From Candidatus Hodarchaeota archaeon (lineage in GTDB: Archaea; Asgardarchaeota; Heimdallarchaeia; Hodarchaeales; Hodarchaeaceae), in the NCBI GenBank assembly GCA_029856365.1, contig JAHQWW010000131.1, forward strand, positions 1 to 10,209: DNA of 10,209 bases. Direction: 5' to 3'. Below the pieces are notes generated by a model. It did not search any database. It saw only the letters and a list, made by a program, of their open reading frames with translations, and was not told the DNA's origin. Below are positions 1-10,209 of the stretch, piece after piece. Within the stretch, counting starts at the first letter, position 1. The number at the start of each line of letters is the position of its first letter. The position numbers and the translations under genes were made by a program.

Positions 1-1140
1 GCTCACGTGAATACTACATTCTTAATCGAAGAAGGTGCAGCATCGAATTTAAGTCGAATGTCTTATCCATGGTTGTTCTTTGATATGGATTGGATGAAAG
101 AAACTGATAAAACAAAAATTGATGAATTAAAGATTGATGAAGCCTTAATTTGGCTTTCTTTGACTACAAAAAAACCATTGATCCAACTTGATTTACAAGA
201 TTTTCACAATAATTTTCTCTCGGATCTTCTACAGCTTTTTAATTACAATATTCCTAGTTTAACCGACGAGGTGTTAGAGAGAATTACTAGTAAAATTCTC
301 TTTAAAGAAAAGCTTCCGAGACATAAAAGAATACTAGTCATCTCTTGTCGTCCTGGTGACGATGGTGTTATTGCTGATATTATTAGAGCTTTAGTTAGTA
401 ATCATAACAAACCAAAAATAGTAAATATGGTAAGTGGTAACATTAATGTAAAAAATACAGATGTTATCGATTACTGTGAACAGAATCTTTTTGAAAAATC
501 AATCAAAGAACATATCTTGAATAATACTCTTAATATGATTGAATTATTGAAATTAAAGACCCTTGTTAGGAAATCTGAAGCAATAGATATGCATGCATAT
601 ATGGGCATCTCATCTGAAAATCAAATTTTCTTAAATCTGCCTTTTTATGAAACTCGAACAATCGAAAAAATCATAGACATTTCTGATGATGATATTATTC
701 CATTGATAACGATTCTGGACAAAGAACAACCTGATATGATTTTCATTCTTGGAGGAATTACCGATCCATATGGCCTCAAAGCGAGAATTGTTGAAATCTT
801 TGAATTGGCATTAAATAGGTCAACGATTCAAAAGGTTGAATTATGGTATTATAAAACAACGATGGAGGAGTTTTCCATTGCGAAAGGAGATATAATCTTT
901 CCTTTTTCTGAAAAAGAAATGGATCTAAAAGCGATAGCAATTCAACGATTAAGAAGTCAACAAGTTGTTGATTTTCTTACTATTCCTGGATTTGACCCAC
1001 GACCACTTTGGGAACGTATAAAAGAGCGAAATCAGAGTGTTGGACACATCCTTAAGACTACTGGTTTAGTTCCTGATGAATATAATTATGCATCAATTTA
1101 TCAAGTTTCTCAGTATATCAAGGATGTTTCTGCAAAATAA
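1..1140 (+). CDS. nagB: Long-form glucosamine-6-phosphate deaminase-like protein (NagB domain plus C-terminal PIG-L/LmbE-like domain, PRK02122 type); 5'-truncated by the window edge; PIG-L domain degenerate
   Basis: Frame is open from base 1 (gct cac gtg aat = A-H-V-N), so the GTG at 7 is probably internal. AHVNTTFLIEEGAASNLSRMSYPWL matches the end of the NagB domain (HPNxTxxLDExAASxLTRxxTPWL). Linker WLSLTTKKPLIQLDLQDFHNNFLSDLL and blocks VRKSEA, FLNLPFYET and PGFDPRPLWERIKERN match long NagB of Bacteroidota type. The deaminase active site lies outside the window. Confidence 0.82.
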   Translation, partial: AHVNTTFLIEEGAASNLSRMSYPWLFFDMDWMKETDKTKIDELKIDEALIWLSLTTKKPLIQLDLQDFHNNFLSDLLQLFNYNIPSLTDEVLERITSKILFKEKLPRHKRILVISCRPGDDGVIADIIRALVSNHNKPKIVNMVSGNINVKNTDVIDYCEQNLFEKSIKEHILNNTLNMIELLKLKTLVRKSEAIDMHAYMGISSENQIFLNLPFYETRTIEKIIDISDDDIIPLITILDKEQPDMIFILGGITDPYGLKARIVEIFELALNRSTIQKVELWYYKTTMEEFSIAKGDIIFPFSEKEMDLKAIAIQRLRSQQVVDFLTIPGFDPRPLWERIKERNQSVGHILKTTGLVPDEYNYASIYQVSQYIKDVSAK

Positions 1141-1156
1141 GAAACCTGATATTCTC

Positions 1157-1160
1157 GGAG
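1157..1160 (+). promoter_or_regulatory. Putative Shine-Dalgarno (GGAG) for the GH2 gene
   Basis: GGAG lies 10 nt upstream of ATG 1171 in a 30-nt gap, consistent with co-transcription. Confidence 0.45.
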
Positions 1161-1170
1161 TAAGAACCCT

Positions 1171-3777
1171 ATGAGTAACAAAATACCCTTAAACAAAGAA
1201 TGGAAAATGCAATCTTCGGAAAAGCTGTCGAAGTTTGGTGAAGTGATTTCCACTACAGATTTCATCCCAGAAGATTGGTATACTGTAGATGTACCAACAA
1301 CCGTCATAAATGGTCTTATTATTAATGATGAATATGATTTCAAAGACCCTTACTTTGGATTAAATCTGAAATCCTTACCAGGATACAAAGCAGATGTTAA
1401 ACGACAGAATTATGAGAGTCGATATAAACCTGAAGATAGTCCATTTAGAAGGTCATGGTGGTTTAGAAAAGAGTTTTCATTGGAGGAGGATCAAGTAAAG
1501 AAGGAAACTTGGATAGCTTTTGATGGGATTAATTATTCAGCAAATATTTGGTTAAATGGCAAACGGATCGCTGGTTCTGATTATGTTATAGGAACATATC
1601 GGCGATATGATTTCCATGTCTCACATTTTGTGACTCCAGGTAAAAATATTCTAGCCTTAGAGGTTTTCTCCCCAAATCCTGATGACCTTGGAATAAGTTT
1701 TGTTGACTGGAACCCTTTGCCTCCTGATGATAACATGGGCATTTGGCAACTAGTATACTTGTACACAACAGGACCTGTTGCATTGAAGTTTCCATTTGTA
1801 AGGAGTAAATTGAATATTGAATCGCTAGAAGAAGCGGAATTAATAATTACTGCAGAATTTCATAATACACAGAAAGAACGTGTGATTGGTGTTGTGAAAG
1901 GTGAAATAGAAAAGATTTTTTTTCAGAAAGAGGTTATTCTTGATTCCAATGTGAAAAAAACAATTGTTTTTTCACCCAAGGAGTTTCCGCAATTAAGGAT
2001 AAAAAATCCTCGGGTATGGTGGCCCCATCAACTTGGTTCTCCAGAATTATATAAGCTGGATCTTAAAATTATCGTTGACGAAAAAGTCTCGGACTGGGAT
2101 GAAATTACTTTCGGGATAAGAGATATTAAATCTTACATCAACGAGTATTCTTCAAGTAAGCTTACCATTAAGAGCCATGAAATCTTAAAGTCAGACCAGA
2201 AAGTTGGCTCCCGTGTGTTCACCATCAATGGGCACGATATTCTACTTCGAGGTGCTGGATGGACCCCTGATATGATGCTGAATCAGTCTGATGAACAAGA
2301 CTATATTGATGTAAGTTTTCTCAAAAATCTTAACATGAACACAGTACGTTTCGAGGGAAAACTTGCAACAGATAATTTTTGGGATATATGCGATAGGGAA
2401 GGCATACTTGTTCATGCAGGATGGGTATGTTGTAGCCATTGGGAAAAATGGGATAACTGGAAGACAGGTGATATTAAAATCGCAGAAGAATCGTTACGCT
2501 CTCAAATTCTTCGTTTACGTAACCATCCAAGTTTTACAGCATGGTTTTATGGGAGTGACTTCCCACCACCCGAACACATTGAGAGAGTTTACCTCAAAGT
2601 GCTAGAAGAAACATATAATGAACTTCCAAGAGTTTCTAGTGCTACAGCTTATCCTACAAAGCTAGCAGGCGAAACTGGTGTCAAAATGACGGGTCCTTAT
2701 ACTTATGTTCCCCCTTCATACTGGTATACAGAAGGAAGAATAGGAGCTGCGGAAAATTTTAACACTGAAACAGGTCCAGATGTATGTATTCCTCCATATG
2801 AGAGTTTAAAAAGAATGCTGCCCGAATTCCAACTTTATATTGGAAGTGAGGGCTGGAATTATCATGCAGGACTTGGGGCATTTACTAGTACAAAATTAAT
2901 TGAGGAGACCATTACAAAAAGATATGGAGAACCGAAAAATTTTGAAGATTTTATAAAAACTACTCAGATTCTGGGATATGAATGCTGGAGAGCTATGTAT
3001 GAAGCACATGCAAGAAACTACCCTAAGGCAACAGGTGTAATAGGGTGGATGCTAAATAGTGCATGGCCAAGCTTGATCTGGCAATTATATGATTATTATA
3101 ATAATCCTAATGGTGCCTTCTTCGGATCAAAAAAGGCTTGTGAACCCGTTCATGTCCAATATTCCTATGATGATGATTCGATATGGATCATTAACAGTAC
3201 ACTCGATCCGAAGGAAAATATTACTGCAAATGTTAAAATTTTTAACATAAACCTTGAAGAACGATTTTCTCAGTCCAAGAAGATAGAAGTGAAAGCTAAT
3301 GACAAATCTAAGGTTTTAATCATACCTGAGTTAAATGGACTCTCTTCTGTATATTTTCTATCCCTCATTATTGAGGAAAACTCAACCATTGTAAGTAGGA
3401 ATTTATACTGGCTTTCAACAACAAAAGATATTCTAGAAGAGAAAGATAAATGGCCTTATACACCATTAAAGTCTCATGCGGACTTGAGTGCAATTAGATC
3501 TCTTCCTAACGTTGAGATAAATAGCACTTATAATATTATTGAATCGGGTCAGAACTATGAAATAACAGTGGTACTCATTAATTCTTCCAAGCATTTGGCT
3601 TTTTTTCTCAGACTTATACTTTTTGATGAAAAAACACAACAATTTGTTGCTCCTGTGTACTGGGATGATAATTGTATTAGTCTTCTTCCATCAGAAAAGG
3701 TTGAGATTAAAGGCGTATTTCCAAAGAAAGCCATAAGTAGTAAAGCGATTCTTAAAGTGGACGGTTGGAATTGTTAG
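1171..3777 (+). CDS. csxA: GH2 exo-beta-D-glucosaminidase (CsxA-like), cytoplasmic
   Basis: 868 aa. GH2 motifs FDGINYSANIWLNG and WWPHQLGSPELY. CsxA-subgroup signatures NTVRFEGK, GWVCCSHWE, RLRNHPS...GSDFPP (Asp acid/base, D463, 2557-2559, in place of the usual NE), GVKMTGPYTYVPPSYWY, FNTETG (nucleophile E533, 2767-2769) and WMLNSAWPSLIWQLYDYY. No signal peptide or C-terminal CBM is evident. Confidence 0.88.
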   Translation: MSNKIPLNKEWKMQSSEKLSKFGEVISTTDFIPEDWYTVDVPTTVINGLIINDEYDFKDPYFGLNLKSLPGYKADVKRQNYESRYKPEDSPFRRSWWFRKEFSLEEDQVKKETWIAFDGINYSANIWLNGKRIAGSDYVIGTYRRYDFHVSHFVTPGKNILALEVFSPNPDDLGISFVDWNPLPPDDNMGIWQLVYLYTTGPVALKFPFVRSKLNIESLEEAELIITAEFHNTQKERVIGVVKGEIEKIFFQKEVILDSNVKKTIVFSPKEFPQLRIKNPRVWWPHQLGSPELYKLDLKIIVDEKVSDWDEITFGIRDIKSYINEYSSSKLTIKSHEILKSDQKVGSRVFTINGHDILLRGAGWTPDMMLNQSDEQDYIDVSFLKNLNMNTVRFEGKLATDNFWDICDREGILVHAGWVCCSHWEKWDNWKTGDIKIAEESLRSQILRLRNHPSFTAWFYGSDFPPPEHIERVYLKVLEETYNELPRVSSATAYPTKLAGETGVKMTGPYTYVPPSYWYTEGRIGAAENFNTETGPDVCIPPYESLKRMLPEFQLYIGSEGWNYHAGLGAFTSTKLIEETITKRYGEPKNFEDFIKTTQILGYECWRAMYEAHARNYPKATGVIGWMLNSAWPSLIWQLYDYYNNPNGAFFGSKKACEPVHVQYSYDDDSIWIINSTLDPKENITANVKIFNINLEERFSQSKKIEVKANDKSKVLIIPELNGLSSVYFLSLIIEENSTIVSRNLYWLSTTKDILEEKDKWPYTPLKSHADLSAIRSLPNVEINSTYNIIESGQNYEITVVLINSSKHLAFFLRLILFDEKTQQFVAPVYWDDNCISLLPSEKVEIKGVFPKKAISSKAILKVDGWNC

Positions 3778-3842
3778 TAAGCCGAGGATTAAGAATTAAT
3801 AAAATAAAAATTCAAAAGAGGTAGTGATGCAAAATTTTGTAA

Positions 3843-3850
3843 TAAGGATG
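3843..3850 (+). promoter_or_regulatory. Putative Shine-Dalgarno (TAAGGATG) for the GH94 gene
   Basis: Ends 8 nt before ATG 3859. Confidence 0.45.
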
Positions 3851-3858
3851 GAAAAAAT

Positions 3859-6255
3859 ATGGGAAAATATGGATATTTTTCTGAAGATGATTTGGAATTC
3901 ATTATTACACGGCCAGATACCCCACAACCGTGGATAAATTATGCAATAAATGGTAAATATCATGCACTTATTTCTAATACTGGTGGGGGGTATAGTTACT
4001 ATATCAATCCGAGAAATTCACGGATTACTAGGAGAAAATACAATTCCCTCCCATATGATCGTCCAGGGAGGTATGTGTATATTCGTGATGATAAAACTGG
4101 TGAATACTACTCACCAACTTGGCAACCAGTATTAAAAGAGCTTGATTCATATGAATGCCGACATGGTCTGGGATATACCAAAATCTCTTCCTCATATAAG
4201 GGAATTAAAAGCAGTATTCTCTACTTTGTCCCTATCGATGAGGATATGGAAATTTGGAAAATTTCTATTGAAAATACAACGAATGAGGATAAAAAGCTGA
4301 ATCTTTTCTCTTATGTAGAGTTTGTCCCTGGTGATGCGTATTCTGATGTTATTGATCATCCTAACCACTCCCACTTCTTATATGCTGATTTTGATCCAGA
4401 AGAAAAGGCAATCTATGCAACTAACAAGATTGGGGTATCCTTCCTACCTGAAGAAGAACAGTATAAAGATGATGGCTGCTGGGGTAAGTTTGTATTCTTT
4501 AAATCAACATTAGATATTGCTGCACATGACTGTAATCGTGATCATTTCATCGGTAGTCCCTATCGTTCTGAAACAAATCCATTAACAGTTGAAAAAGGAC
4601 AACTAACTAATTCGATGCTGAATTCGGGCCATGCCTGTGGTGCATTGCAAAACAACGTTACTATCAAAACTGGGGAAAAACTTGAATTCTGTATAATGAT
4701 GGGTGTTGTCGACAGACTGGATTACAAAACCCAAACCCGTAAGATACTTAATGAATGGACTCCTGAGAGGGTTGAGAAAAGTCTTGGCGATTTGAAGAAC
4801 TATTATCAGAACCTTTTTGGTACTATACAAGTTAAAACTCCAAATGATAAGGTAAATAGAAACATAAACGTTTGGAACAAGCTTCAGGCAAAGGTTAATT
4901 TCACTGTCTCCCGAGATGCTTCTAGATATCACTGGGGTCTCTCCTATGGTATGGGTTTTCGAGATACCTCCCAGGATCTTCTGGCTATGATCATGTTTGA
5001 TGCTCCAGCTGCTAAGGAAGTCATAAAAGAACTTGCTAGACAGATGTTCAGTGATGGAACTACATATCATAACTTCTTCCGTGTGTCACATGATGGTATT
5101 AAAACAGGCCACTCGGATGATCCACTGTGGTTGCCTCTTGCAGTTCAGTACTACTTGAATGAAACAGGTGATTTTACGTTCCTTGATGAAATTGAAATGT
5201 ATGCCGATGGTAAAAGCGGTACCATTCTTGAACACTGTTATCGTGGCGTCGACCAGGTCTGGAGTCAGAGAAGCAAAAGAAATATACCACTTATTCTTAA
5301 TGGTGACTGGAACGACGACCTAAATGAGTGTGGTAGGCATAAAAAGGGAGAAAGTATGATGGTAGCAGAGCAGCTCTGCGTTGATCTTCAGTTCATGATT
5401 GAGATGCTTACTTACACCAAAAGGGATCCTGAAAAGGTTGAAGAGTATAAGAAGATAAATGAAATAATTATTGAAGAAATGAACAAATCTTGCTGGGATG
5501 GAAAATGGTATCATCGATTCACCAAAGATGATGGTTCTGTACAGGGTACTCATAAGAATGAACAAGGGCAGATTTATCTCAATGCACAGTCGTGGGCAGT
5601 TATCAGTGGAATAGCGAAAGATGAAAGTGCGGTACAGTGTCTTGATTCTGTTCTTGAGCATCTCGATTCGAGAGTTGGGCCTCGTATCTGTGCTCCAGCA
5701 TATACGAAGTCGGATGCTACCATTGGTGCAGCAACAAGAGAAGCTCCAGGCAAAAAGGAAAATGCTTCTGTTTTTAACCACCCTGTTACTTGGTTTATTC
5801 AAGCCAATACTATTCTTAAGAGAGGTAATATTGCTTTTGAGCAATATCATAAAACATTACCAGAAGTCCTATCTAAGGATCAAGATCTGTTTGCAGTCGA
5901 ACCTTATGTGTACTGTGAATATACAACTGGTCCAGATCATAAGGAATACGGTAAAGGTGGTCATTCATGGTTAACAGGGACAGCTTCATGGATGTACTTT
6001 TGTGGTGTGAATTTCATTTTAGGTATTAAACCCACATATGATGGCCTCATAATTGATCCATGTATACCAAGTGAATGGGATGGATATACTGCAATTAGGA
6101 GATTCAGGAATTCTACATATAATATTTCAGTAAAAAATCCTAATCACAAAGAATCGGGAATATCTGAAGTCATATTGGATGGAAAATCCTTTGAAGGTAA
6201 TAAATTCCCTATTTTTGATGATGGCAAGGAACATTCTATAGAAATCATAATGTAA
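3859..6255 (+). CDS. GH94 glycoside phosphorylase (cellobiose/N,N'-diacetylchitobiose phosphorylase family); amino-sugar substrate likely from context
   Basis: 798 aa, typical length. MGKYGYF...ITRPDTPQPWINY, DRPGRYVYIRD, YECRHGLGYT, GMGFRDTSQD, SDDPLWL, GDWNDD (catalytic acid D486), KENASVFNH (phosphate-site His), EPYVY and SWLTGTASW. Confidence 0.93.
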   Translation: MGKYGYFSEDDLEFIITRPDTPQPWINYAINGKYHALISNTGGGYSYYINPRNSRITRRKYNSLPYDRPGRYVYIRDDKTGEYYSPTWQPVLKELDSYECRHGLGYTKISSSYKGIKSSILYFVPIDEDMEIWKISIENTTNEDKKLNLFSYVEFVPGDAYSDVIDHPNHSHFLYADFDPEEKAIYATNKIGVSFLPEEEQYKDDGCWGKFVFFKSTLDIAAHDCNRDHFIGSPYRSETNPLTVEKGQLTNSMLNSGHACGALQNNVTIKTGEKLEFCIMMGVVDRLDYKTQTRKILNEWTPERVEKSLGDLKNYYQNLFGTIQVKTPNDKVNRNINVWNKLQAKVNFTVSRDASRYHWGLSYGMGFRDTSQDLLAMIMFDAPAAKEVIKELARQMFSDGTTYHNFFRVSHDGIKTGHSDDPLWLPLAVQYYLNETGDFTFLDEIEMYADGKSGTILEHCYRGVDQVWSQRSKRNIPLILNGDWNDDLNECGRHKKGESMMVAEQLCVDLQFMIEMLTYTKRDPEKVEEYKKINEIIIEEMNKSCWDGKWYHRFTKDDGSVQGTHKNEQGQIYLNAQSWAVISGIAKDESAVQCLDSVLEHLDSRVGPRICAPAYTKSDATIGAATREAPGKKENASVFNHPVTWFIQANTILKRGNIAFEQYHKTLPEVLSKDQDLFAVEPYVYCEYTTGPDHKEYGKGGHSWLTGTASWMYFCGVNFILGIKPTYDGLIIDPCIPSEWDGYTAIRRFRNSTYNISVKNPNHKESGISEVILDGKSFEGNKFPIFDDGKEHSIEIIM

Positions 6256-6418
6256 CATTTTTCAAATATCTGGGATCAAGATAGAGTTGATGATAACGTA
6301 TTACCGAGGATAATATTGTTATACCTTTCACATTTATGTTTTAATAGCTTAGTTATCATTACTAACAATTATTAATTGATACAAATAATCGGTAGAATGA
6401 GTATAGGTATGAAAAGAG

Positions 6419-8563
6419 TTGGATGTAGAACAATTTGAAAAACTAATAACAAAAAATGAAGAAATCTTATTCATATTGTATAAAAGAAAGATTTTCTTAA
6501 TTTCTGACCTTCTGAGTAGTGGTCTATTACACAATAAAGAATTCCTTGAGCAAAATGCAGCAGTTTTCCCTGATGATAGTCATAAAATTATAACTCAGTT
6601 ATTAAACTCTGAATATATTGTAAATTATCCTTATCCAGTATTAATTGATTTTGCAAAGACAATAGAATTTTATAAGAGCAATATCTCTCTACCTGAAAAA
6701 GAACGAATTGAATCTTCCTTTTTAATGTCAAGAATAAATTTCATGGGAACAGACGGTATTCGTGGTAAAATTAGTCTGGAAACTGAGGACTACTTAAAAG
6801 ATCTTACAACTAAAAACATCCTAACTCCTGAACTTATCAGAAATTGTGTATATTCATTTGCAAATTTATTGCTTAGCAAGAAGATTATAGAAGAAAATGA
6901 TACCGTCTGTATTGGAGATGATGGAAGGGATAGAATAACTAATGGGAAATTTAAGAAAGCATTAATTGATGGTTTTCTCGGAGCAAATATTCATGTTTAT
7001 GATCTAGGAATTGTACCTACAGGTATTGTGCCCTATCAGCTACTAAAAAGGAATTTTAAAGCTGGAGCTGTATTAACAGCTAGTCACAATCCATCAAATC
7101 AAAATGGGATTAAATTCTTTCTTAATGGTAAAAAACTGTTACCCGAAGGAGAATTGGGTGATTTTACACTTTCTGCTCTGATGTATTTCTTTTATATGCA
7201 GAAAATTCTACCAGAAAGAAGAGCTTCTATTTCTGTTTCAGAAAATATATTGATTGAGAGCACCGATTTCATTCTTTCAGTTTTACCACAAAATATCACT
7301 AGTCTTCTAAAGGATATCGTAATTATATTTGATTCTGCAAATGGTGCGTTTACAGAAATTGGGATAAATGTTCTAGATGCCTTACAATTAGATTATAAGA
7401 GTGTTAATGACTCTCCCGATGGACACAATATAAACAAGAATTGTGGTATTGCTGAATTAGAAGGCCATGATATTTTTCATGTTGAATCCTTAGATGCTTA
7501 TCCTCGATTAATAAAGGAAACATTCTCCATTGGGAGGAAGAATGATCCAGGCAAAGTATTTGGTATATCTTTAGATGGTGATGGTGATAGAGGATATGTA
7601 GTTCATTATAATAAAGAAGAGGATTGTGTTTATGTTATCAATGGTGATAAATGTGGTTATATATTAGCTGAATATTTCATTAAATCAAGAAAAATTGAAG
7701 CTAAAGAAGCCTATTTTGTATTAACAATCGAATCCGATTTAATGGCTGCTTCTAGTGTTGAGAAAAATCTTGGTCTTAAAACAAAAATCGTCAGTGTGGG
7801 GGATAAATGGATAGGGAATTTTGATGAGGGAGAACTATTGATTGGTGTTGAAGTTTCTGGACATGTTATTTTTCCAATTGAGTTTTTAAACGATTTTAAT
7901 CAAAAAGTGAACCTTTTAACTGGAAATGGTCTTCTGACTAGTTTAATGCTATTGACTGCCATAAAAGAGTTGGATCTCCCAATAGAGAAAATCTTTCTTC
8001 CTTTCAAGCCAGGAATTTCTGAAATCTTTTATGTATTCTTCATTGATAAGTCTAGATTCTGTAAGGGTAGTACTGTTTGGACAAAAGATATTGAATTGAT
8101 AAATAGCGAAATTTCACGGCTAATTGAAAATAGAAGGTTAAGTTTGGATACTAAACTCGTGATAGAGGAAAAAGAAGACCCAAATGTTTTGTATATGAAT
8201 ATTGTTGATGCAAATGAGGTACTAGGGTGTATTTTTGTGCGTAATTCGGGCACTGAGGATAAAATTGCTACTTATACTCTAGGAAAACTAGAAATGAAAG
8301 AAATTCTTTACAAAATTGGTGAAAAATTATGGGAGAATCACTTTTTATTAATGAAAGACAAGGATAAACTTGAGTTTAAATATGAAAGCCTGATCAAATC
8401 TATTCTGCAAAAACAAACTGAGATTTATGTACAAGAGTTAAAGGGTGTAATGGAACAAACTCTGGAACAACCAATAAATAAAAATAACCTTTATAATGTA
8501 TTATATGGGCTTAAGAAAGAAGGAAGAATTAAATCAGAAAATCAGATCATACGATTGCAATAG
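6419..8563 (+). CDS. Alpha-D-phosphohexomutase (GlmM/PMM-PGM superfamily), probable phospho(acetyl)glucosamine mutase, with N- and C-terminal extensions
   Basis: 714 aa. GTDGIRG, TASHNP (phospho-Ser S222, 7082-7084), NGIKFF, DSANGA, DGDGDR metal loop, VGDK, GVEVSGH sugar loop and RNSGTE phosphate loop. Start is uncertain: TTG 6419 (in-frame TGA at 6410-6412) or ATG 6725 (MSRINFMGTDG). Confidence 0.88.
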   Translation: MDVEQFEKLITKNEEILFILYKRKIFLISDLLSSGLLHNKEFLEQNAAVFPDDSHKIITQLLNSEYIVNYPYPVLIDFAKTIEFYKSNISLPEKERIESSFLMSRINFMGTDGIRGKISLETEDYLKDLTTKNILTPELIRNCVYSFANLLLSKKIIEENDTVCIGDDGRDRITNGKFKKALIDGFLGANIHVYDLGIVPTGIVPYQLLKRNFKAGAVLTASHNPSNQNGIKFFLNGKKLLPEGELGDFTLSALMYFFYMQKILPERRASISVSENILIESTDFILSVLPQNITSLLKDIVIIFDSANGAFTEIGINVLDALQLDYKSVNDSPDGHNINKNCGIAELEGHDIFHVESLDAYPRLIKETFSIGRKNDPGKVFGISLDGDGDRGYVVHYNKEEDCVYVINGDKCGYILAEYFIKSRKIEAKEAYFVLTIESDLMAASSVEKNLGLKTKIVSVGDKWIGNFDEGELLIGVEVSGHVIFPIEFLNDFNQKVNLLTGNGLLTSLMLLTAIKELDLPIEKIFLPFKPGISEIFYVFFIDKSRFCKGSTVWTKDIELINSEISRLIENRRLSLDTKLVIEEKEDPNVLYMNIVDANEVLGCIFVRNSGTEDKIATYTLGKLEMKEILYKIGEKLWENHFLLMKDKDKLEFKYESLIKSILQKQTEIYVQELKGVMEQTLEQPINKNNLYNVLYGLKKEGRIKSENQIIRLQ

Positions 8564-8694
8564 AAGTTATGTGTTACCTATAATCTTCTCTTGTCTAGAA
8601 GTAGATAGTTATAAGCTTCTTAATCCTTTCTATATCTCGGTATCTTGATACCCATCAGATTCATATGCTCTCAGCCTATTAAATAACAAAGTTG

Positions 8695-9858
8695 TTATTT
8701 GCTGGAGTAAAGTACTGTTCCTTTGCATATTGTCGTGAGAATATTGAGCTTCGAGTCAAGAATCACGATATCCGCAACAAAATCTGGAGCTAAACGCCCA
8801 TAATTCGATAATTTCATTACTTCTGCAGGATTCAATGTAGCCATTCTAATTGCATCTTTAAGGTCTAAACCTATTTGCGTAACCATATTCTTGACAGCGA
8901 CATCCATAGTTAAAGTGCTGCCAGCTAGTCTTCCTGTAGCTTTTATTCTACTGATGCCATCCTTGAGTACAGTTTCTAAACCACCTAATTCATATTCTCC
9001 ATCTGGAAGACCTGTTTCAGAAATAGCATCAGTTATTAAGATTAATCTCTCAATACCTTTTAATTTGACTACTGCAGTTATGGTTCCTGGATGAAGATGA
9101 ACCATATCTGTAATCAATTCCGCATATACATCCTCCCTTGTTAAATATGCTCCGATTATTCCTGGTTCTCTATGATGAAAGGGTCTCATACCATTGAAAA
9201 GATGACTACAGATAGTAATACCAGCATCAAATCCTAATATCGCTTCTTTGTATGTTGCATTCGTGTGTCCAACAGAAACAACTATTCCCATTTCCTTTGC
9301 ATACTTGATATATTCTACTGCTCCTGGAAGTTCAGGTGCAAGAGTAATCCTTTTAATATTATGGTCAGATTTTCGGGTTAATTCTTCTAATTCTTTTATG
9401 TTTGGATTTCGTGCAAAGTTAACATTTTGAGCTCCTGCTTCTTTCCCCGTGTTTATATGGGGGCCTTCTAGGTGAAGTCCCAGTATTTCTGCTCCCTTAA
9501 CTTCCTTTTTAACTACATTTTTTACAGCATCACACACTTGTAACAAAATCTCTTGAGACTGGGTCACAGTTGAAGGTAAAAAAGACGTTACACCATGTTT
9601 CAAAAGAGATTTTGATATTTCAACAAGACCTGCCACGTTATTTATTGTTACATCGTAACCACCATATCCATGTGTGTGAATATCAAGAAATCCAGGAGCA
9701 GCTATAGAGTTAGGATAATATAGAACATCCTTGTCTTGCGAGATCTCATTCCAACGTACTAACTTCTTTATTTTATCTTTTTCAATAACAATGCCTATTT
9801 CCCTAAGTTCTTCTGTTGGTGTTATTGCCCTATCTACTTTCAAAACCAATTGTTCCAT
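8695..9858 (-). CDS. nagA: N-acetylglucosamine-6-phosphate deacetylase
   Basis: 387 aa. PGFLDIHTHGYGG, GLHLEGP, GAQ, TLAPE, GHTNA, HLFNGM, HHREPG, LITDA, LAGSTLTMD and NPA. Metal ligands and the catalytic Asp are present. Confidence 0.96.
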   Translation of the reverse strand: MEQLVLKVDRAITPTEELREIGIVIEKDKIKKLVRWNEISQDKDVLYYPNSIAAPGFLDIHTHGYGGYDVTINNVAGLVEISKSLLKHGVTSFLPSTVTQSQEILLQVCDAVKNVVKKEVKGAEILGLHLEGPHINTGKEAGAQNVNFARNPNIKELEELTRKSDHNIKRITLAPELPGAVEYIKYAKEMGIVVSVGHTNATYKEAILGFDAGITICSHLFNGMRPFHHREPGIIGAYLTREDVYAELITDMVHLHPGTITAVVKLKGIERLILITDAISETGLPDGEYELGGLETVLKDGISRIKATGRLAGSTLTMDVAVKNMVTQIGLDLKDAIRMATLNPAEVMKLSNYGRLAPDFVADIVILDSKLNILTTICKGTVLYSSK

Positions 9859-9867
9859 CCTGAAGCT

Positions 9868-9872
9868 TCCTT
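9868..9872 (-). promoter_or_regulatory. Putative Shine-Dalgarno (AAGGA) for nagA
   Basis: Minus strand reads ctAAGGAagcttcaggATG, 9-nt spacer. Confidence 0.45.
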
Positions 9873-9883
9873 AGAGTAGTGGT

Positions 9884-9948
9884 AAACTTATAGCTACTAT
9901 GGCTTGACCAACGTGGCGATCTACCACCCGAACTATTCCTATAAGTTT
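9884..9948. repeat. Perfect 10-bp inverted repeat AAACTTATAG ... CTATAAGTTT with 45-nt spacer
   Basis: Arms at 9884-9893 and 9939-9948 are exact reverse complements; the spacer is 23/45 G+C. Confidence 0.8.
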
Positions 9949-10009
9949 TTATGTTTTATGTAAAAACCAATTAATGTTTCTTTGTAATATTATTAGAAAC
10001 CACAATTAT

Positions 10010-10015
10010 GGAGGT
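10010..10015 (+). promoter_or_regulatory. Shine-Dalgarno GGAGGT for the SIS-domain gene
   Basis: GGAGGT ends 5 nt before ATG 10021. Confidence 0.75.
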
Positions 10016-10020
10016 AAATT

Positions 10021-10209
10021 ATGCCTGCTGATCAATACTTTGAAGCAATCAGTAGAGTTCTTAAAAAAATTCGTGAAACTCAATCTGAAAAGATTAAAAA
10101 GGCCGCTCAAGTAATGGCGGAATCCGTTGAACACGGAGGGGTTGTTCACATGTTTGGTAGTGGACATTCAGTTATCCCAGTCCTTGACATCTTCCCCCGT
10201 TATGGTAGC
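10021..10209 (+). CDS. SIS-domain sugar-phosphate-binding protein, UPF0309 family; 3'-truncated by the window edge (absent from the ORF track)
   Basis: Manual translation MPADQYFEAISRVLKKIRETQSEKIKKAAQVMAESVEHGGVVHMFGSGHSVIPVLDIFPRYGS, open to the end. YF...Q.E.I..AA...A....GG....FGSGHS.......F.R.G is the UPF0309/SIS_2 N-terminal pattern, with a strong SD. Confidence 0.87.
   Translation, partial: MPADQYFEAISRVLKKIRETQSEKIKKAAQVMAESVEHGGVVHMFGSGHSVIPVLDIFPRYGS

Follow-up and report, generated by a model that had tools for sequence, protein, structure and literature searches.

The locus described here, a set of amino-sugar genes on a 10,209-bp contig from a Hodarchaeales archaeon, is best approached through the described pathways that it resembles. 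The Vibrio operon for (GlcNAc)2, the dimer of N-acetylglucosamine (GlcNAc), spans VC0611–VC0620 and encodes a mutase, a GH94 chitobiose phosphorylase (ChBP), a GH20 enzyme, a kinase, a GH9 exo-glucosaminidase and an ATP-binding cassette (ABC) importer. The Thermococcus/Pyrococcus pathway is an archaeal cytoplasmic route that proceeds via glucosamine (GlcN), using the PIG-L deacetylase Dac, the GH35 enzyme GlmA, an ADP-dependent GlcN kinase and the SIS deaminase GlmD; to our knowledge, it lacks the phosphorolytic branch that is added in the pathway proposed below. In Chitinivibrio alkaliphilus, a cytoplasmic GH2 ‘chitobiase’ beside a chitobiose phosphorylase and a mutase has been proposed from the genome, and in Chitinispirillum alkaliphilum a GH9 ‘chitobiase’ is given the same role, splitting deacetylated dimers (Sorokin et al. 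2014, as described in PMC4814513). As presented there, both are whole-genome reconstructions from scattered bacterial genes and were never assayed. The original prediction for the present locus, which was made from the DNA letters alone, knew of no described pairing of GH2 with GH94; the Chitinivibrio proposal is such a description.

The window, by which we mean the whole of contig C164, belongs to a Hodarchaeales metagenome-assembled genome (MAG) of 4.24 Mb in 204 contigs, with 35% G+C and a completeness of 83.6%. It contains six reading frames: one open at its 5′ end, followed by genes for a GH2 enzyme, a GH94 enzyme, a mutase of the PGM superfamily, NagA and a partial SIS_2/UPF0309 protein. 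We propose that these genes probably form the heart of a pathway by which imported chito-oligosaccharides, N-deacetylated in part, are broken down in the cytoplasm. In this pathway, a GH2_16 glucosaminidase would hydrolyse non-reducing-end GlcN off GlcN-terminated oligomers, and the GH94 enzyme would phosphorolyse the remaining β-1,4 disaccharide without ATP, the favoured reaction being GlcNAc-β-1,4-GlcN to GlcNAc-1-phosphate and GlcN. The 714-aa mutase would then shift the phosphate from C1 to C6, and NagA would deacetylate GlcNAc-6-phosphate. Free GlcN (or GlcNAc) would be phosphorylated by the ROK domain of a fusion protein encoded by the first gene, the NagB domain of which would convert GlcN-6-phosphate to fructose-6-phosphate and NH3, whereas its PIG-L domain would be a non-catalytic relic. 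The fusion and GH2 represent the older two-gene core, to which GH94 and the mutase would add an ATP-saving phosphorolytic branch.

A pathway of this type has already been proposed for chitin-eating bacteria; the window is a variant of it, and the chemistry is not new. The new aspects are that an archaeon keeps the genes as a conserved operon, that its three-domain fusion includes a dead deacetylase, and that the GH94 and the mutase belong to uncharacterised subfamilies with distinct specificity residues. In common with the Chitinivibrio/Chitinispirillum scheme, the locus combines a cytoplasmic GH94, a GlcNAc-1-phosphate mutase, a kinase, NagA, NagB and a GH2 or GH9 side route for deacetylated dimers, and the Chitinivibrionia GH94 proteins are 55–64% identical to that of the window. 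Here, however, the genes form one conserved archaeal operon that includes the kinase–deaminase–pseudo-deacetylase fusion; the one Chitinispirillum GH94 of the same clade that we looked up adjoins neither a mutase nor a GH2 gene. With the Vibrio operon it shares imported dimers, phosphorolysis by GH94, a sugar-1-phosphate mutase and an exo-glucosaminidase for deacetylated units, but it has GH2_16 in place of GH9, a mutase longer by ~250 residues, a kinase fused to a deaminase and an archaeal host. With the Thermococcus route it shares an exo-β-glucosaminidase, a GlcN kinase and a GlcN-6-phosphate deaminase, and the fusion even carries a domain of the Dac fold; unlike in that route, this domain appears to be inactive, the glucosaminidase belongs to GH2 rather than GH35, and the deaminase is of the NagB type.

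The GH2 gene (1171–3777, forward strand; 868 aa) is well supported, on alignment evidence, as encoding a cytoplasmic exo-β-D-glucosaminidase of the CsxA type, as the original prediction had it. The protein aligns with CsxA of Amycolatopsis orientalis (GH2_16, PDB 2VZS) with E=3.5e-152 over residues 12–867, as against ~1e-29 for β-mannosidases, and carries the Pfam domain Ig_GlcNase (PF18368; 1e-23). In the GH2_16 subfamily, Ser-Asp replaces the Asn-Glu of other GH2 enzymes as the acid/base motif and a Glu replaces a conserved His (PMC12243196); in CsxA, this Glu, E394, binds the C2 amine (PMC6566704). Both signatures and the nucleophile are present in the window protein: the Glu in VRFEGK (2344–2361) aligns with E394, the Ser-Asp in YGSDFP (2548–2565) with S468–D469, and the nucleophile Glu in NTETGP (2761–2778) with E541. 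The claim that neither glycoside-cleaving enzyme has a signal peptide was also borne out. No hydrophobic N terminus was found in GH2 or GH94, the Kyte–Doolittle 12-mer maxima of which are 0.63 and 0.17, respectively, compared with 2.86 for a nearby membrane-anchored GH16. The alignment of the GH2 enzyme with CsxA begins only at CsxA residue 58, and the C-terminal ~140 residues of CsxA, presumably its CBM35, have no counterpart. The window enzyme, in contrast to CsxA, is thus predicted to be intracellular.

The GH94 gene (3859–6255, forward strand; 798 aa) encodes a predicted inverting phosphorylase with both Pfam domains of the family (PF17167, 366 bits; PF06165, 249 bits). The conserved features of GH94 are in place, including the catalytic Asp in DWND and the Arg of the FRD...QD motif (GFRDTSQD), and the protein has the fold and length of Vibrio proteolyticus ChBP (PDB 1V7V). 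In the original prediction it was a phosphorylase that releases GlcNAc-1-phosphate without ATP. We compared the sugar-contacting residues by alignment with ChBP, cellobiose phosphorylase (CBP) and CDP. In CDP, hydrogen bonds link C625, Y804 and E810 to O2 of the +1 sugar, and R496 together with Q874 binds the C2-OH of the −1 sugar (PMC5667895). In CBP, the C2-OH contacts to the +1 and −1 glucose are made by Tyr653, the Cys after the catalytic Asp, and Gln712 (PMC5667895, PMC10318527). The change from Tyr to Val631 in ChBP has been called crucial for chitobiose specificity (PMC10318527). In the window protein, the motifs DWNDD (5305–5319; Asp486, Asp487), TREAPGKKEN (5734–5763; Glu628, Lys632, Glu634) and YCEY (5911–5922; Glu687) supply the corresponding residues. 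The catalytic Asp486 matches ChBP D492, and Glu634 matches the conserved CDP E810. By contrast, Asp487 stands in place of ChBP C493, the CBP C491-equivalent and CDP C625; Glu628 replaces ChBP V631, CBP Y653 and CDP Y804; and Glu687, at the −1 C2 contact, replaces ChBP Q690, CBP Q712 and CDP Q874. ChBP V635 is Lys632 in the window protein; Lys632 was considered as the counterpart of Val631 and rejected, the 1V7V alignment placing V631 opposite E628 and V635 opposite K632. The specificity positions differ from those of every characterised enzyme with which the sequence was compared.

These substitutions define a clade. Among the best 120 homologues, positions 487 and 628 split cleanly into Asp plus Glu in 27 sequences, the window included (the D clade), and Thr plus Cys in the other 93 (the T clade); the two positions co-vary without exception in further metagenome loci as well (12 of the D type and 6 of the T type). 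Lys632 and Glu687 are invariant among the same 120 homologues, and Lys632, being common to both subclades, cannot tell them apart. In all, we saw about 40 D-clade members. The nearest non-Asgard relatives of the window GH94 (Chitinivibrionales, 64% identity; Chitinispirillum, 55%) both belong to the D clade, and Chitinispirillum grows on chitin only and not on cellulose (PMC4814513). In a tree that leaves out one characterised enzyme, the ChBP of Ignavibacterium album (IALB_1006), the Asgard sequences group together, and their group lies within the bacterial sequences of the D clade. Vibrio ChBP belongs to a different clade. The sister T clade, ‘DWNDT / RCVPGKKEN’, comprises the 93 sequences from Calditrichota, KSB1, Armatimonadota and others; its neighbours include GH18 and SIS_2 (L049, 9042–12466) or a normal 482-aa PGM and NanE (L050, 8556–13131), and here, too, we came across no published assay.

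By these residues, the window GH94 is neither a Vibrio-type chitobiose phosphorylase nor a cellobiose phosphorylase and instead belongs to an uncharacterised clade nearest the Chitinivibrionia enzymes. Because its +1 C2 contacts are Asp and Glu rather than Cys and Val, plain (GlcNAc)2 is not an obvious substrate, and a reducing-end GlcN appears more likely. The two extra carboxylates at the +1 C2 site, together with neighbourhoods rich in oligosaccharide deacetylases and glucosaminidases, lead us to favour GlcNAc-β-1,4-GlcN, with (GlcNAc)2 or (GlcN)2 as possible substrates. In its widest form the idea is a tentative one, which we put forward as a possibility rather than an expectation: that the ‘DWNDD / (R/K)E..GKKEN’ clade has an undescribed phosphorylase specificity for half-deacetylated chitobiose with GlcN at +1, most simply GlcNAc-β-1,4-GlcN (the product of a CE4/COD-type deacetylase), and that, with a dedicated 714-aa mutase subfamily, it constitutes an ATP-saving route that evolved in bacteria and was acquired by Asgard archaea. 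If this were true, phosphorolysis of GlcN-containing disaccharides would be an activity new to the Enzyme Commission list, and the enzyme would be a useful tool for making defined chito-oligomers.

The mutase gene (6419–8563, forward strand; 714 aa) carries the PGM_PMM_I/III domains, and all four catalytic motifs are intact: the phosphoserine loop TASHNP (7076–7093), the metal loop DGDGDR (7574–7591), the sugar loop VEVSGH (7847–7864; GxExSGH in the superfamily) and the phosphate loop RNSGTE (8240–8257; RxSGTE). Its best family is GlmM (TIGR01455, 4e-40; 138 bits against a cut-off of 448), and its best PDB relative is likewise a GlmM (6GYZ). The protein scores below every equivalog cut-off and is thus best regarded as a separate α-D-phosphohexomutase subfamily. 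Two extensions that are absent from GlmM and PMM, one of ~105 aa at the N terminus (6419–6730) and one of ~70 aa at the C terminus (8350–8563), are kept in all 714–726-aa orthologues.

Such orthologues, with conserved motifs, almost always come next after D-clade GH94 genes, as they do in L034, L036/L054, L037, L038, L039, L055, L056 and the contig of P0026. The genes around the D-clade GH94 are those of amino-sugar metabolism, including NagB (L036, L038), GH20 (L038), a YdjC/ChbG-type deacetylase with an ABC importer (L036) and GH2 with the Ig_GlcNase domain (bacterial contigs L034, L056 and L073). In L039, the GH94 and mutase genes are accompanied by SIS, GH9, a binding protein, a BadFG-type kinase and a CE4 deacetylase, which makes this locus a close analogue of the Vibrio operon built on the GH94 clade of the window. 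The 714-aa mutase therefore appears to be a dedicated partner of the D-clade GH94, and the original view of GH94 and mutase as a linked pair holds, in the form of a conserved cassette found in amino-sugar contexts. This draws attention to two groups, a large clade of GH94 and a subfamily of long mutases, for neither of which we found published biochemical data.

The gene at the start of the window (1–1140, forward strand) had been read as NagB, one of six amino-sugar genes. The other five, GH2, GH94, mutase, NagA and SIS_2, were identified as such; this one proved to be the tail of a ROK–NagB–PIG-L fusion. The open reading frame (ORF) is open at its 5′ end, gave no match in the Pfam search and matches NF002557 over positions 260–639 only, on which grounds a stand-alone NagB was rejected. 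Another contig of the assembly, C28, ends with a 667-aa open frame that contains a ROK domain and a NagB domain, and its reverse complement shares an exact, in-frame 77-mer with the start of the window; the whole assembly has only eight exact links of this kind. The joined fusion measures 1014 aa and is 100% identical over the query to the uninterrupted protein P0151, and uninterrupted genes for fusions of 1013–1014 aa occur in L047, L048, L008, L009 and L018. The window itself holds the last ~25 NagB residues (nucleotides (nt) 1–75), a helical linker and a PIG-L/LmbE-fold domain (about nt 328–1120). A kinase, which the original prediction had reported as missing from the window, thus belongs to the window’s first gene, in the form of the ROK domain on C28.

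The NagB domain on C28 scores 275 bits against TIGR00502 (cut-off 236.9) and keeps the active-site blocks NLDEYY and GHIGFNESG. The ROK domain keeps ENDAN with the catalytic Asp, the sugar motif ExGH (AGELGH) and the zinc-cysteine motif CxCGxxGC (CGCGNKGC). Its structural model is nearest Thermotoga maritima GlcNAc kinase, with N-acetylmannosamine and glucose kinases among the other best fold matches; regulators of the Mlc type also match. A winged-helix DNA-binding domain at the N terminus of the fusion was considered and is not supported, the ~90 N-terminal residues being modelled as a β/α unit. This unit, which precedes the ROK domain (L006, that is, G000:C28, 1730–1982, minus strand; fusion residues ~8–90), is modelled with a predicted local distance difference test (pLDDT) score of 85–96. 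It is present in all Asgard fusions and missing from the ~531-aa ROK–NagB fusions of bacteria.

Homologues of the last domain of the fusion carry PF02585 (PIG-L), and an AlphaFold2 model of the window domain (pLDDT 88) gave 42 Foldseek matches with E <= 0.001; the matches listed have the LmbE/PIG-L fold and are for the most part deacetylases, with BC1534 and the diacetylchitobiose deacetylases of Pyrococcus at their head. The fold is thus retained; the zinc-deacetylase motifs are degenerate (SCRPGDD, 343–363; DPYGLK, 763–780; LRSQQ, 949–963). In motif alignments, PHPDD has become CRPGD, replacing a zinc His with Arg and the base Asp with Gly, and DPHGTH has become DPYGLK, replacing the second His with Lys. 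Of the three zinc ligands of these deacetylases (the His and Asp of (A/P)HPDD and the His of HxxH), two are thus gone, as is the general base. These alignments exclude an active Dac-like deacetylase. The loss is common to all Hodarchaeales-type orthologues, whereas the motifs are intact in Helarchaeota-type fusions (P0161–P0165) and in bacterial NagB–PIG-L proteins. With the zinc ligands and base replaced, the PIG-L domain is read as dead, a predicted pseudoenzyme conserved in Hodarchaeales, and the fusion as a whole is best read as a sugar kinase, a GlcN-6-phosphate deaminase and a dead deacetylase. In the 1044-aa Helarchaeota-type fusions, SPHPDDD, DPHGTH and HKSQ are all intact, and these proteins could be genuine tri-enzymes with kinase, deacetylase and deaminase activity. 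The occurrence of active- and dead-deacetylase versions of one fusion across Asgard lineages would offer a natural case of a catalytic domain kept as a pseudoenzyme.

The nearest relatives of every window gene are from Asgard MAGs labelled Hodarchaeales/Hodarchaeota, Hermodarchaeota, Heimdallarchaeota or Promethearchaeota. The linkage that the original prediction asked to test is kept, in the order fusion–GH2–GH94–mutase and in one orientation, in four Hodarchaeales MAGs (the window, L018, L047 and L048), and GH2 lies next to a D-clade GH94 in three bacterial contigs. In the window, the intergenic gaps along this order are 30, 81 and 163 nt. An apparent truncation of GH2 and GH94 in L018, a public Hermodarchaeota contig, is an assembly artefact: the end of GH2 and, in GH94, the first ~40 codons are lost to a 100-N gap (11860–11959). 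In L008 and L009, the fusion and GH2 lead straight into SDR, GH116, a CBP-like GH94, GH3 and SBP_bac_5 genes. Because in L047 the cassette sits between the GH2 and SDR genes that adjoin in L008 and L009, it is an insertion after GH2, made in only part of the lineage, with the fusion and GH2 as the older pair.

The nagA gene (8695–9858, reverse strand), for GlcNAc-6-phosphate deacetylase, scores 317 bits against TIGR00221 (cut-off 225.65; profile positions 4–379 of 380). It is convergent with the mutase gene and divergent from the SIS_2 gene; the genome has no second nagA, and nagA is a single-copy gene in four Asgard genomes. The SIS_2/UPF0309 gene (10021–10209, forward strand; PF13580, 5e-19; NF002805) is cut by the contig end after 63 codons. 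Contig C25 (G000:C25:1–3325; L053) starts with the missing SIS_2 C terminus, followed by GH42, ROK, SDR and GH116 genes. A k-mer overlap search did not find the 3′ neighbour of C164, and the adjacency of C164 and C25 is inferred from the split SIS_2 gene. The full-length SIS_2 orthologue from G001, a complete Heimdall-type chromosome, matches the GlcNAc-6-phosphate dehydratase NagS (SCO4393; PDB 9EOL) at 8e-27 and about one-third identity, with H53, R64, E94 and D179 conserved; the His and Arg of this catalytic set are visible in the window fragment. NagS orthology is restricted to Streptomycetaceae, and homologues at 26–36% identity had no significant activity (PMC12680351). The GH42 product was also considered as a Thermococcus GlmA-type glucosaminidase, which its scores do not support (123 bits to GH42 β-galactosidases versus 21 bits to GlmA, 5GSL). 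The original prediction listed NagA and the SIS protein among the members of the pathway. Ancestrally, they belong to a separate SIS_2–GH42–ROK module that is here placed right after the cassette, and the locus as a whole is a mosaic assembled stepwise from largely bacterial-type genes.

A number of observations weigh against the proposed pathway. We found no published assay for the GH94 clade of the window or for the 714-aa mutase family; the roles assigned to the GH94 residues come from papers on CDP and CBP and not from a structure of the D clade, and the best solved relative of the window GH94 by score is the cellobiose phosphorylase of Clostridium thermocellum (554 bits), ahead of Vibrio ChBP (481 bits). 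The phosphate-1 motif of the ROK domain reads GVEIGG(R)T, with a Glu in place of the Asp expected from DxGxT, whereas Helarchaeota-type fusions have GIDIGG. Close relatives (L008, L009) lack the cassette, and in a GH2-centred search a D-clade GH94 lay beside GH2 in only 1 of 25 loci (L018); the neighbour tally of bacterial GH2 homologues relies on crude ORF calls on high-GC DNA and is indicative only. In G001, ~590 kb separate nagA from the GH2 locus, and nagA is divergent from an SIS_2–GH42–ROK operon (L051). Given that NagA and SIS accompany another operon there, their adjacency at the window may in part be a historical accident. No GH18 chitinase was found in the genome, which is 83.6% complete, and GH19 and GH46 were not searched. 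Finally, GH16, GH130, GH116, GH3 and a second GH94 also lie at the locus, marking it as a multi-substrate glycan island.

Some of these points would fit three unrelated modules lying side by side in a transfer-shaped glycan island: a GlcN module (fusion and GH2), an imported phosphorylase–mutase cassette, and NagA/SIS_2–GH42–ROK for another substrate (for example, β-galactosyl-N-acetylhexosamines). The modules would then have only the end products GlcN-6-phosphate and GlcNAc-6-phosphate in common, without any alternating trimming of oligomers. The separability of the parts speaks for such an arrangement, as the fusion and GH2 occur without the cassette (L008, L009), the cassette occurs without NagA or SIS (L047, L048) or, in L036, within another operon that also has YdjC, NagB and ABC transporter genes, and NagA accompanies SIS_2–GH42–ROK far from GH2 in G001. 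We nevertheless consider it unlikely. GH2_16 adjoins a D-clade GH94 independently in the bacterial contigs L034, L056 and L073, and the cassette follows GH2 in the same orientation, after 55–81 nt, in the four archaeal MAGs; this recurrent adjacency in bacteria and archaea argues for selection on the linkage.

The choice of substrate admits further readings. The GH94 could be an ordinary (GlcNAc)2 phosphorylase acting on other glycans with GlcNAc or GlcN, such as the chitobiose core of N-glycans after mannoside phosphorolysis by GH130, or fragments of microbial cell walls or exopolysaccharides. All relatives do have a GH130 gene, of the β-mannoside phosphorylase family, ~6 kb upstream, and in the Actinomycetota locus L031 such a gene immediately precedes GH2; GH130 enzymes that act on Man-GlcNAc and Man-chitobiose are known (PMC8950772), the sister T clade sits with NanE or GH18, and no GH18 chitinase was found in the genome. 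However, N-glycan cores lack the free C2 amine for which the GH2_16 signature is specific, the acidic +1 pocket is unlike that of the Vibrio (GlcNAc)2 enzyme, and the D-clade neighbours include oligosaccharide deacetylases and GH9 or GH2 glucosaminidases, all of which makes this origin of the substrate decidedly improbable. Least probable of all, and in our judgement very unlikely, is that the GH94 is a phosphorylase for cellobiose or another β-glucoside and the 714-aa protein a phosphoglucomutase, both serving β-glucan use with GH16, GH116 and GH3, with the amino-sugar genes incidental. The ranking of CBP above ChBP, the ‘cellobiose phosphorylase’ names of homologues in Joint Genome Institute (JGI) records and the presence of GH16, GH116, GH3 and another GH94 in the island are consistent with it. 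Yet the CBP residues at the three contacts (the C491-equivalent, Y653 and Q712) are Asp, Glu and Glu in every D-clade member, the separate GH94 of the island has a far stronger family score (541 bits), amino-sugar genes surround the members of the clade, GlmM is the best-scoring family for the mutase, and growth on cellulose is absent in Chitinispirillum, the nearest bacterial relative whose phenotype is known. The use of partly deacetylated chito-oligosaccharides remains the reading that we prefer, and it may provide a concrete, testable picture of amino-sugar polymer scavenging by the Asgard archaea of sediments, which among prokaryotes are the closest relatives of eukaryotes.

The original prediction had proposed to inspect the flanks for a kinase, a transporter and chitin-degrading enzymes. 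The flanks and the rest of the genome yielded the ROK domain on C28, a lone Opp permease and a GH20 gene elsewhere; GH18 was looked for and not found. YdjC, CE4 and three intact PIG-L genes are also encoded elsewhere in the genome. Upstream of the window genes, on the opposite strand, are genes for an α/β hydrolase, ThuA, the Opp-type permease, GH130, the membrane-anchored GH16 and a helix-turn-helix regulator. The permease gene, of the Opp/Dpp ABC type and ~327 aa (L006, 4636–5298, and L007, 1–396), has no partner permease, ATPase or binding protein nearby and is kept in L008, L009, L018 and L047. The GH130 protein (L007, that is, G000:C53, 417–1430) is 74% identical to the GH130 of the Actinomycetota MAG in L031 (8877–9869), which there directly precedes GH2_16. 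This identity between an archaeon and a bacterium is unusually high and suggests recent transfer. The GH16 gene (L007, 1486–2430) encodes an N-terminal membrane anchor and a Pro/Glu/Thr-rich linker and has a weak match to SKN1/KRE6. GH2_16 is also flanked by GH16 genes in Bryobacterales MAGs (L019–L022), an association hinting at a link with fungal-type β-glucan/chitosan walls.

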